From Octopus vulgaris (lineage: Eukaryota): a stretch of 64,000 nt of DNA. The position numbers and the translations under genes were made by a program. Of this stretch, positions 1,351 to 50,954 are shown piece by piece. Position 1 is the first letter of the stretch. The number at the start of each line of letters is the position of its first letter. The notes under the pieces were generated by a model. That model was not told the origin of the DNA. It saw only the letters and a program-made list of their open reading frames with translations, and made no database searches. Location of the stretch: assembly GCA_951406725.2 (NCBI GenBank), contig OX597814.1, positions 8,556,001 to 8,620,000 on the forward strand. The letters are read 5' to 3'.

Positions 1351-1466
1351 AAACCACAACATCAAAACAGGAATCATCCTCCATGGCACCAAGAACTAAT
1401 GTGGCATTGACAAAGAATCGTGGCATCAAAATACAACTAATGATTGATTCAATTTCTAATGCATCT
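1351..1466 (+). CDS. Copy 1 exon a (linker + macrodomain start)
   Basis: ttttcag|aa...gcatct|gtgagt; translates TTTSKQESSSMAPRTNVALTKNRGIKIQLMIDSISNAS in phase with the next exon. Confidence 0.8.
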
Positions 1467-49600: not shown

Positions 49601-50954
49601 ATACCAGCAGATGACAACGTATCTCTAAAAGAAATGGAGAAACTTTCAAAAGACAAAGACCTGGAAATAGAGGTAACCAGAATGTGGAATCTAAAAACAG
49701 AAACAATTCCTATCATAGTAGGCGCATTAGGTATGATAAAAAAATATTCAGACAAATACATAACAAAAACACCAGGACTTACAAACACATATAACATACA
49801 GAAAATTGCACTACTAGGTACTGCACACATCCTACACAGAACACTTTCAATATGGTAACCATCAGAGCATCACAACAAATCACAGCACATACCCAAGGTG
49901 CACAGAGCTGCGCTCGGTAGTGAAGTGAAAGCAAGCTATAAAAATAAAACTAGTGAATAATAATAATAATAATAATAATAATAATAATAATAATAAATGC
50001 TCTGATGCAGTAACAGGCAGTGGTTCTCATGGCTTCTGATCTTAACTGATTGGAAGTGTTATCATGTACATTGTTTTGCCTTGGTATAAAAGATGGGTTA
50101 CAGCAAATATTCTGCTCAATACCACAGATTTGCTTGTCAGTTGTTTGACCGTAACCAGTTGATCATGTCCCTTAGTGGCTGACGATATGTGCATCTCTGA
50201 TCAGGAGCAGAAGTAGTGGGGCACCATCATAGCCATGTGTTGAGAGGGATTCTTTGGGGTTTGGATAATTCACCTTTGGAAACATGGGTGTTTCATTCAA
50301 CTCCTTTAAACACCCCTTATTCAGGGATCTTTTGAGCTGGATGGGCTCTTCGACATGACAAGAAAGTCTGAGCCCCACCTGCAAGGTCATACACTGTTTA
50401 TCTTGTTATGAGATCACAATGTCACACACATATGGTTGTGATGTATGGGCCTGGTGTACACTTATCAGACAGGTAGTCATGATGGGTATACTGGACTTTG
50501 TATATTTGTACCCCACTGTCACTTTGATGGCATGCATTGCTCTCTCACTCAATAATAATAAAAATAATACTCTTTGTTATTAAAGGCACAAGGCCTGAAG
50601 TTTTGGAGGAGGGGATTCTGGATTACACTGACCCCAGTGTGTAACTGGTACTTATTTCATTGTCCCTGAAAGGATGAAAGGTGGAATTTGAACTCAGAAT
50701 GTTAAGACAGACAAAATGCCCAATATGCTAATGATTCTGCCAGCTCACCTTCTGAATAATGATGATGATGATGATGATGATGACAATGGCGATGACGACG
50801 AAGATGGTGACGACGACGACGATGATGACGATGATGATGAAAAGAGACACTAGTTTTTTCCTAAATAAAATTTAAGATAAATAAAAAGAAAGTATTTACC
50901 TGATGATGCAGTTGAACCACCTGTTGTGTTTCCTTGGAAATATTCATGAAATTT
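22370..50954 (-). CDS. PARP14-like: Macro-PARP-like mono-ADP-ribosyltransferase, copy 2; complement(join(22370-22632,24778-24955,25321-25454,50900-50954)); macrodomain exons not in window
   Basis: Four exons with lengths identical to copy 1 (55, 134, 178, 263 nt), intact splice sites, no stops; H-Y-I triad retained. Upstream exons presumably lie beyond 64000. Confidence 0.88.
24778..24955 (-). CDS. Copy 2 exon f' (catalytic His, donor loop)
   Basis: IERIQNKALYHGYQALKRKYEAENPNITNEVDGLWHGTAEGAVDGINKSGFNRSYCSKN; tacag acceptor and gtaagt donor. Confidence 0.93.
25321..25454 (-). CDS. Copy 2 exon e'
   Basis: One nucleotide difference from 13426-13559 (S>N); same splice sites. Confidence 0.9.
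25877..25914 (+). ncRNA. Minimal type I hammerhead-like motif with variant core, in a ~200-bp Penelope pLTR-like remnant (25815-26010)
   Basis: tcttt-CTGTCGAA-gagc gtag gctc-GAAA-cg-TA-aaaga. Confidence 0.6.
26030..30035 (-). mobile_element. Near full-length RTE-clade LINE (APE+RT single frame 29686-26552 with two in-frame TGA)
   Basis: GTLNVGTL, CIQEVRW, AGDFNGH, QFGF, HQGSVLSP, YADD; (GAT)n tail; (TA)n at both flanks. Confidence 0.96.
26195..26445. repeat. Four ~61-bp tandem units in the RTE 3'UTR
   Basis: gtgcttttacgtgcc-like motif recurs at 26196, 26259, 26320, 26381; internal cgtgcc/ggcacg hairpin. Confidence 0.85.
30090..32636 (+). mobile_element. Young non-autonomous LTR retroelement (5' LTR truncated 30090-30489; 3' LTR 32037-32636)
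   Basis: 400-bp direct repeats with 1 mismatch; TGTA...TACA ends; PBS; polypurine tract ggaggggag 32025-32033; no gag/pol ORF. Confidence 0.92.
30491..30508 (+). other. tRNA-Trp primer-binding site
   Basis: TGGTGACCCCGACGTGAT, 1 nt after the LTR CA; complementary to the 3' 18 nt of eukaryotic tRNA-Trp. Confidence 0.9.
34316..34700 (+). mobile_element. SINE family A inserted in the hAT
   Basis: Full head-to-tail match to family A. Confidence 0.88.
34981..35505. mobile_element. hAT-type MITE (525 bp) nested in the hAT
   Basis: 16-bp TIRs cagtggttcccaaact/agtttgggaaccactg; 8-bp TSD taataatt. Confidence 0.93.
36330..36850 (+). mobile_element. R4/Dong-like RLE 3' fragment
   Basis: IEHRRSDIV..IIDVAIP..EKITKY; (TAA)n tail. 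Confidence 0.8.
37000..37900 (-). mobile_element. L1/Tx1-like 3' fragment
   Basis: VLHTLIQCPGIADLW and KVFVWWT..FIKRW C-terminal motifs. Confidence 0.6.
37961..38123. repeat. (AAT)n microsatellite
   Basis: Direct. Confidence 0.98.
39180..39880 (+). mobile_element. R4/Dong 5' region fragment
   Basis: GYQQCMYDQW..EQRLCDQAR..WFTEVELE N-terminal motif; follows a (TAA)-rich tract. Confidence 0.65.
39886..40508 (+). mobile_element. Tc1/mariner 5' half
   Basis: TA|caggggttgaacaaaataatggaaac TIR-like start; HTH AKMFGVSRSTVSKV and GRKPKLS. Confidence 0.85.
40840..40880 (+). ncRNA. Minimal type I hammerhead-like motif with variant core, in a Penelope pLTR-like remnant (40719-40951)
   Basis: tgagc-CTGTTGAA-gaca cacaaga tgtc-GAAA-ta-TT-gttca; flanked by a ~55-bp direct repeat and a short inverted copy. 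Confidence 0.6.
40975..43429 (+). mobile_element. R4/Dong-clade retrotransposon, 5'-truncated (extra fragment 40510-40640)
   Basis: YMDDLKLY RT, CRICG..HIISGC zinc knuckle, RLE; (TAA)n at both ends. Confidence 0.93.
44610..49065 (+). mobile_element. Near full-length R4/Dong-clade retrotransposon (second family), decayed and chimeric
   Basis: KWTREE N-terminus, FQGDSL, YMDDLKL, RLE; duplicated 3' end; (GAA)n tail. Confidence 0.92.
47756..48182 (+). mobile_element. CR1-clade LINE 3' fragment nested in the R4/Dong element
   Basis: SYEERL..LEKRRRRGDLI..LRGH..FSVRV..WNKLP; (CTAA)n tail; absent at the homologous site ~11930. Confidence 0.92.
49065..49204. repeat. (GAA)n(GAT)n compound microsatellite
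   Basis: Direct. Confidence 0.97.
49205..49996 (+). mobile_element. R4/Dong 3' fragment
   Basis: Highly similar to 42661-43429; NRPD..IDVS RLE; (TAA)n tail. Confidence 0.92.
50900..50954 (-). CDS. Copy 2 exon d'
   Basis: KFHEYFQGNTTGGSTASS; same acceptor and donor as 7393-7447. Confidence 0.8.

Follow-up and report, generated by a model that had tools for sequence, protein, structure and literature searches.

Tail-to-tail PARP14-like genes of Octopus vulgaris in which the catalytic exon has probably escaped gene conversion

Two PARP14-like genes lie tail to tail in a stretch of 64,000 nucleotides (nt) of Octopus vulgaris DNA (assembly GCA_951406725.2, contig OX597814.1, positions 8,556,001 to 8,620,000 of the forward strand). 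This stretch is the window analyzed here; all coordinates refer to it, and it contains no N. The pair is best explained, with a probability of about 0.6, as two old inverted paralogues that have been homogenised by patchy gene conversion and that retain an island of divergence resembling the one at opsin exon 5. Two members of an Octopus PARP14-like cluster, roughly 20% apart at unconverted sites, would sit tail to tail, and their 3' parts would have been overwritten by several conversion tracts of differing age; the donor at the 3' end was probably copy 1. Overwriting would have spared exon g and, less completely, the beginning of exon h. The outcome would be that copy 1 retains an old catalytic core (type A) and copy 2 the common core (type B) on a nearly identical scaffold. 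Conversion as the cause of the patchwork, and its direction, are what we infer.

Copies 1 and 2 have 630 coding nt in common, in four exons (e to h) of 55, 134, 178, and 263 nt with identical phases, AG/GT at all junctions, and frames open in both (Table 1). The stop codons end at 16624 on the plus strand in copy 1 and at 22370 on the minus strand in copy 2, 5.7 kb apart. Across the shared exons 39 nt and 30 amino acids differ, and three codons (7420, 14024, and 16475) are purely synonymous. The copies align over 3,736 columns at 92.6% identity (E 0.0), far above chance. A first-pass annotation of this DNA had reported the same exon sizes, phases, convergent layout, stop spacing, and open frames, all of which were reproduced, and its counts of shared, differing, and synonymous positions were exact. 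Its description of an inverted pair of intact macro-PARP genes requires narrowing. Copy 1 does have macrodomain exons (PF01661), and its exons visible in the window encode an open frame of 399 amino acids, but copy 2 shows only its four 3' exons there. The copies are arranged tail to tail, but they do not form a clean inverted repeat, as they are separated by a 4,952-nt spacer, have patchy identity, and differ in the length of intron e-f (6.0 kb in copy 1 versus 25.4 kb in copy 2). No 5' end of either gene was found inside the window.

The differences between the copies are concentrated in exon g, where 27 of 178 nt differ (15.2%) versus 12 of 452 in the remaining shared exons (Fisher p 5e-8). 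The two shared introns differ at 66 of 2,501 positions (p 1e-11 against exon g), leaving an exonic peak between homogenised introns. This divergence island, with exon g as its core, spans 13791-14161; in the intron sequence on either side of exon g, the copies are 8% and 33% apart. A mini-island occupies the first 35 nt of exon h, with five differences (p 0.002).

Both types of exon g are old. For the 28 amino acid differences in exons f to h, a comparison with 23 other records, each gene represented by one isoform, finds the copy 2 state in Octopus sinensis or Octopus bimaculoides at 28 of 28 and the copy 1 state at 26 of 28. Copy 1 exon g is 93% identical to that of O. sinensis P0003 (labels of this type denote the Octopus protein records compared in this analysis) and 64% identical to that of copy 2, making it nearer to its orthologue than to its paralogue. 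A 59-column protein tree of exon g puts copy 1 in a clade with P0003, P0009, and P0016 of O. sinensis (97/97), and the approximately unbiased (AU) test rejects a clade of copy 1 and copy 2 (p 5e-5; 1.6e-4 with four rows added). The tree of exon f and the 3' part of exon h instead places copy 1, copy 2, P0002, and P0003 together (97/95, starred) and rejects the exon g clade (p 0.003). P0001, which equals copy 2, and the isoform duplicates P0005, P0013-15, P0017, and P0020 were left out of the trees; P0027 was left out of the first exon g tree and restored in the extended one. P0003 and P0002 differ from each other at 2/44, 23/59, and 2/87 positions per exon segment, the same profile as between copy 1 and copy 2. 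The intron starts also look old, as translation past the exon g donor resembles stretches of O. bimaculoides records: in copy 1, nine of ten residues from the Gly match the C-terminal tail of P0032, and in copy 2 the read-through resembles the corresponding stretch of P0027. The splits from O. sinensis and O. bimaculoides are given as 2.5 and ~34 million years (PMC10700109). From these comparisons the two exon g types can be placed firmly before the former split, and they are likely, with less certainty, to predate the latter.

Outside exon g, the relationship between the copies is a patchwork. Seven tracts that differ by 0.8-4.6% (pooled, 103 of 4,752 columns, or 2.2%) alternate colinearly with four remnants that differ by 17.6-23.5%, three of them inside one intronic long interspersed nuclear element (LINE) and one upstream of exon f. 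Tract borders were chosen by eye, and divergence among the tracts is heterogeneous (chi-square p 0.009). Tract II is bordered by remnants of the same LINE that are 19-24% different. At the 3' end, copy 1 has a whole short interspersed nuclear element (SINE) and copy 2 only the first 60% of it, with the break at a microsatellite. Copy 1 was probably the donor here; a later deletion in copy 2 would give the same picture. Conversion from arm to arm, which the first-pass annotation had suggested for inverted copies, thus gains support by inference from the alternation of tracts and remnants. Its further proposal, that inverted orientation is what lets conversion proceed free of deletion risk, is conjectural; the same exon type is also carried by other members of the cluster. 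A 430-nt insertion (47756-48184) with a 4-nt tandem tail at its end splits tract II in copy 2 and is therefore probably younger than that tract.

A rival reading is that copy 2 arose recently, as a partial duplicate of copy 1 about 2% old, and afterwards acquired short patches of type B from third members of the cluster. The patches would be centred on exons because only exons and their splice flanks pair with such donors, and selection would not be required. The half SINE at the junction suggests copying from copy 1, the islands take in splice flanks, and copy 2 exon g resembles copy 1 at its end. Micro-mosaics are also known elsewhere, as in the copy 1 exon g loop shared only with O. vulgaris P0007. 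However, third-party patches would be needed in the colinear non-coding remnants too, including those inside the LINE, and the unequal tract ages are left unexplained. In addition, the hAT element in the copy 2 long intron is related to one before exon f in the P0023 model, which hints at a separate history. We consider a young duplicate doubtful.

A misassembly that joined two haplotypes of one gene head to head would be another source of the patchwork, and the difference would then be allelic. The heterozygosity reported for an O. vulgaris reference is 1.22% (PMC10700109), so the tract divergence of 2.2% lies within a factor of two of it, and the junction falls in a repeat. Nevertheless, the tract differences (103/4,752) exceed that heterozygosity (p 7e-8), the remnants are 18-24% apart, the window is free of gaps, and the flanks are non-homologous on both sides. 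Moreover, in O. sinensis the two exon types occur in distinct records that share one 213-Mb contig. A misjoin is very unlikely. Read errors do not account for the differences either, since these match the states of other species.

The excess of amino acid changes could in principle mean that the genes duplicated recently and that the catalytic exon then went through a burst of positive selection, and the first-pass annotation implied such rapid adaptive change. By the Nei-Gojobori method there are 34 nonsynonymous differences over 498 sites and 5 synonymous differences over 129 sites, a dN/dS of 1.8, and 24 of the nonsynonymous changes lie in exon g against an intron divergence of 2%. Yet the ratio is not significant (Fisher p 0.31), and the contrast of 30 amino acid changes with three synonymous codons overstates selection because nonsynonymous sites are four times more numerous. 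The differences are old states known in other species, 26 of 28 pre-existing there; the non-coding flanks of exon g have diverged as well; and a shared origin for exon g of copy 1 and copy 2 is rejected by the trees. A selective burst is thus largely refuted, and we give it hardly any credence. Pairwise dN/dS on converted mosaics can mimic recent selection. That selection maintains the island is a separate proposition, plausible at about even odds, with hints in the position of the island and its repetition in O. sinensis.

Several observations weigh against two old paralogues with a conversion-spared exon. P0002 falls short of a clean orthologue of copy 2 (its exon g is 88% identical, its linker is different, and it lacks the exon h mini-island). 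The link of O. bimaculoides P0032 to type A has an unstarred support of 93/80, and the AU test does not reject a monophyletic group of the three O. bimaculoides exons (p 0.056). There is no selection signal in exon g alone (dN/dS not significant, Fisher p 0.30); its proportion of nonsynonymous differences (pN), 16.7%, equals the remnant level of 19.5% (p 0.46), and outside exon g pN (10/354) equals the intron divergence (p 0.86). The chance that a 371-nt island would cover exon g is 0.06, and any whole exon 0.10, so that its position is suggestive only. The LINE remnants could be independent insertions. No O. vulgaris record among those searched matches copy 1 fully, and the presence of a macrodomain in copy 2 and its expression are matters of prediction, which may count against the explanation as well.

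The upstream region of copy 2 bears on whether this copy is a complete gene. No macrodomain exon was found in the ~13 kb of the window upstream of its exon e. On the minus strand of the window, tblastn with 30 and then 50 Octopus proteins gave no macrodomain exon, a blastn comparison of 1-7500 with 50800-64000 gave no macrodomain exon match, and PAM30 tblastn, the 50 proteins, and sensitive blastn detected no additional linker or macrodomain exons for copy 2 in the window. Homology between the copies stops ~60 nt upstream of exon e (7334/51013). Copy 2 might accordingly be a 5'-truncated or silent fragment whose frames stay open passively, through conversion and youth, and whose island is a neutral leftover, a condition compatible with either history of the pair. 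Such a fragment would fit the missing macrodomain exons, the end of homology, the NCBI model that begins in a transposon, and the lack of a purifying signal outside exon g, and the probability that 630 nt remain free of indels on one lineage at the intronic indel rate is 0.15. For both lineages, however, that probability falls to 0.02. Copy 2 also retains every splice site and its poly(A) hexamer, and its old exon g, without indel or stop, is 92% identical to its best protein match among family members. Finally, LINE insertions make up ~8 of the 13 kb upstream of exon e, so that macrodomain exons may sit just past the window. A silent fragment is possible, but we rate it as improbable.

Public models add their own complications. 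P0001, the NCBI model of copy 2 (265 amino acids), has no macrodomain, and its first exon is a fragment of hAT transposase (33414-33193), a probable annotation artefact. In practical terms, the public model of copy 2 starts inside a transposon, and copy 1 was not found among the O. vulgaris records. O. vulgaris P0043, which is 93% identical to exon b, was considered as the lost 5' half of copy 2 and set aside, being 67% identical to exon a and resembling a fused model of other genes. A hAT family at 33193-33414, 33611-33748, and 35520-35669 supplies the first exons of both P0001 and P0023 (O. vulgaris). A related element therefore lies before exon f in another paralogue, by shared ancestry or by independent insertion, both of which are possible.

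Both genes belong to an Octopus family. The copy 2 exons are 100% identical to the O. vulgaris PARP14-like record P0001, which lies on a 225.7-Mb contig, and 30 of 31 protein matches are from Octopus at 67-100% identity; the 31st (46%) was left out. The protein search was word-limited, so the absence of other cephalopods from the matches is weak evidence. Among 50 records examined, the 9 from O. vulgaris contain 9 distinct catalytic cores, the 22 from O. sinensis contain 14, and the 3 from O. bimaculoides contain 3, in agreement with the lineage expansion that the first-pass annotation had surmised. Most O. vulgaris and O. sinensis cores map to the largest contig of the respective species. O. 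sinensis P0003 contains RNA recognition motifs, two macrodomain stretches, and a PARP domain, but its Macro1 motif is reduced to a fragment; it differs from copy 1 at 6 of 399 amino acids and is likely its orthologue. PARP14-like macro-PARPs have N-terminal RNA recognition motifs and three tandem macrodomains with a hydrolase-type Macro1; any such further parts of copy 1 would be encoded by 5' exons beyond the window. The macrodomain of copy 1 exon b lacks the hydrolase-type Macro1 signature found in paralogues such as P0004 and P0033, and it is probably of the reader type by the criteria of PMC10221186, section 3.1.

In each copy, PF00644 recognises the ADP-ribosyltransferase (ART) domain on exons g and h; the whole domain in P0001 scores 66 bits against a cut-off of 26.7. 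Its best PDB matches are PARP15 and PARP14, and in the PARP15 alignment (E 1.6e-37) His, Tyr, and Ile fall at the triad positions in both copies. A His-Tyr-hydrophobic triad without the catalytic Glu is the mark of a mono-ADP-ribosyltransferase, and both copies are predicted to have this activity. By the same alignment, exon g encodes the His motif, the next helix, and the D-loop, and the start of exon h encodes the last part of the D-loop together with the Tyr. A WWE domain between the macrodomains and the ART domain is a feature of PARP14. None is present before the copy 1 ART domain, where there is just the 18-residue linker exon, as in P0003; the 200-residue linker of some paralogues is presumably WWE-like, and Pfam gave no such call. 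An AlphaFold2 model from an 11-sequence alignment headed by the type A record P0009 reached a predicted local distance difference test score of only 33.6, and a tblastn search of exon g against phages gave no match.

Some variation within the domain is of a finer grain. A loop of four to six residues ahead of the His motif (14024-14035, exon g) varies as a micro-cassette among paralogues, and the copy 1 version is common to O. vulgaris P0007 and not to the O. sinensis orthologue P0003. The D-loop of both copies (16362-16370; 22632-22624) lacks one residue relative to PARP15 and most Octopus paralogues, a shortening common to P0002-5, P0009, P0013-17, and P0028. In PARP15, Arg576 anchors the D-loop and is required for the dimer and for activity, and the PARP14 ART domain is monomeric (PMC12572374). 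The R576 position is occupied by Cys in copy 1 and Arg in copy 2. PARP14 has the same Arg as PARP15, and since its ART domain is monomeric, PARP15-type dimer control through this position in the Octopus copies is a lead only.

The remainder of the window is rich in mobile and repeated sequence. The copy 2 long intron carries a young element resembling a long terminal repeat (LTR) element (30090-32637) without a Pfam-recognised open reading frame, with 403-nt direct repeats that are 99.5% identical, a primer-binding-site-like motif after the left repeat, and a purine tract ahead of the right repeat; the left repeat seems to be truncated at its 5' end. A miniature inverted-repeat transposable element with 16-nt terminal inverted repeats and an 8-nt target duplication (34981-35505) lies within a decayed hAT transposase region (~33.0-35.9 kb). 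On the minus strand, 26552-28159 holds an open LINE frame of 535 amino acids with a reverse transcriptase and a PHD-like finger, and related copies occur at 4.4-6.9, 52-55, and 56.6-59.8 kb. A 24-nt minisatellite of 20 copies lies behind copy 1 (17260-17742), with a few units before the SINE in both copies. A 46/69-nt minisatellite (63349-64000) adjoins a short minus-strand frame (62818-63213) that presumably resembles a Helitron replication protein.

Table 1. Positions of the exons, conversion tracts, remnants, and related features in the window
Feature	Position	Strand	Partner or evidence
Copy 1 exon a, encoding linker plus beginning of last macrodomain	1351-1466	+	AG/GT, frame; matches O. 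sinensis P0003; earlier exons beyond the window
Copy 1 exon b, macrodomain N-half	1748-1975	+	PF01661 E 5.9e-13; 100% to P0003
Copy 1 exon c, macrodomain C-half	2587-2814	+	PF01661 E 4.6e-4 (alone below the curated cut-off); 100% to P0003
Copy 1 exon e, 18-residue linker	7393-7447	+	AG/GT, frame
Copy 1 exon f, ART domain start	13426-13559	+	1 difference from copy 2
Copy 1 exon g (type A), encoding catalytic His motif plus D-loop	13949-14126	+	PF00644; 27/178 differences; trees; PARP15 alignment
Copy 1 exon h, with Tyr motif, Ile as third triad residue, and stop	16362-16624	+	5 of 8 differences within first 35 nt
Copy 2 exon h with stop	22370-22632	-	100% to O. vulgaris P0001
Copy 2 exon g, of type B, the family consensus	24778-24955	-	Arg retained at PARP15 R576 position
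Copy 2 exon f	25321-25454	-	AG/GT, frame
Copy 2 exon e	50900-50954	-	would splice onto exon f across 25.4 kb
Homogenised tract I	7334-8300		partner 51013-49985; 3.2-3.5% different
Homogenised tract II, in intronic LINE	11290-12060		partner 48823-47625, split by 430-nt insertion; 2.3-4.6% different
Old remnant upstream of exon f	13308-13393		partner 25586-25487; 17.6% different
Main inverted arm	13394-17021		partner 25486-21974; tracts of 0.8%, 2.1%, and 0.9% surrounding islands
Non-palindromic spacer	17022-21973		4,952 nt; copy 2 arm stops within SINE microsatellite, without second half of SINE present in copy 1
hAT transposase fragment, first exon of P0001	33193-33414	-	100% to P0001 residues 1-74; PF05699 E 9.5e-4, below cut-off

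Palindromes of the Y-chromosome type have long, continuous, nearly identical arms with arm-to-arm conversion. The Octopus pair resembles them in having inverted copies with signs of conversion, but its short, interrupted arms differ by 1-5% and have 5 kb of spacer between them, along with remnants that are 18-24% apart. A palindrome with near-identical continuous arms is ruled out by this patchwork of 0.8-4.6% tracts and 18-24% remnants.

As proteins, the copies are most like metazoan PARP14 and PARP15 (ARTD8 and ARTD7), in which one or more macrodomains precede an ART domain with a His-Tyr-hydrophobic triad and in which duplication is recurrent. At least eight PARP14 copies are reported in microbat (Daugherty 2014, PMC4038475; Delgado-Rodriguez 2023, PMC10221186). 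Molluscan PARP14 homologues have already been reported, and the supplement of the latter paper contains nine mentions of Crassostrea, five of Mytilus, and a single Octopus accession (PMC10221186). No description of the Octopus PARP14 expansion or of its exon mosaic was found in the literature searched, which lay outside the subscription journals. A PARP15 orthologue is rejected as an identity for either copy, as PARP15 is mammal-only (PMC10221186, section 3.1) and the copies belong to the Octopus set at 67-100% identity; the 18-residue macrodomain-ART linker of copy 1, which is PARP15-like, therefore represents convergence. By analogy with mammalian macro-PARPs (PMC4038475), an innate-immune role may be supposed. 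The mammalian genes differ in that their selection signal is centred on the macrodomains, whereas the standing difference between the Octopus copies lies in the catalytic exon.

If both genes are expressed, they would provide two enzymes that are near-identical save for the exon encoding the His motif and D-loop, and thereby a test of the effect of the D-loop on mono-ADP-ribosylation targets. A broader and rather speculative proposal, to which we assign low odds, is that the chromosome-1 cluster acts as a mix-and-match library, in which at least two ancient core exons (types A and B), kept by selection, are moved by conversion among genes with different macrodomain arrays. Were this true, it would generate new reader-writer pairs for anti-pathogen ADP-ribosylation. 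[quoted passage not shown]

The closest parallels for the divergence pattern are human red and green opsin exon 5 and RHCE/RHD (Fawcett and Innan 2011, PMC3924837), where introns are homogenised and one functional exon keeps old differences; copepod GOT1p1/p2 shows the same pattern of a divergence peak under gene conversion (PMC3728101). The Octopus pair departs from the opsin and RH cases in being inverted rather than direct and in belonging to a cluster of at least ten members, with the same exon type on several backgrounds, and its functional difference is putative. Copy-number turnover of macro-PARPs in vertebrates and exons spared by conversion are each known; what is new is an invertebrate case that joins both.

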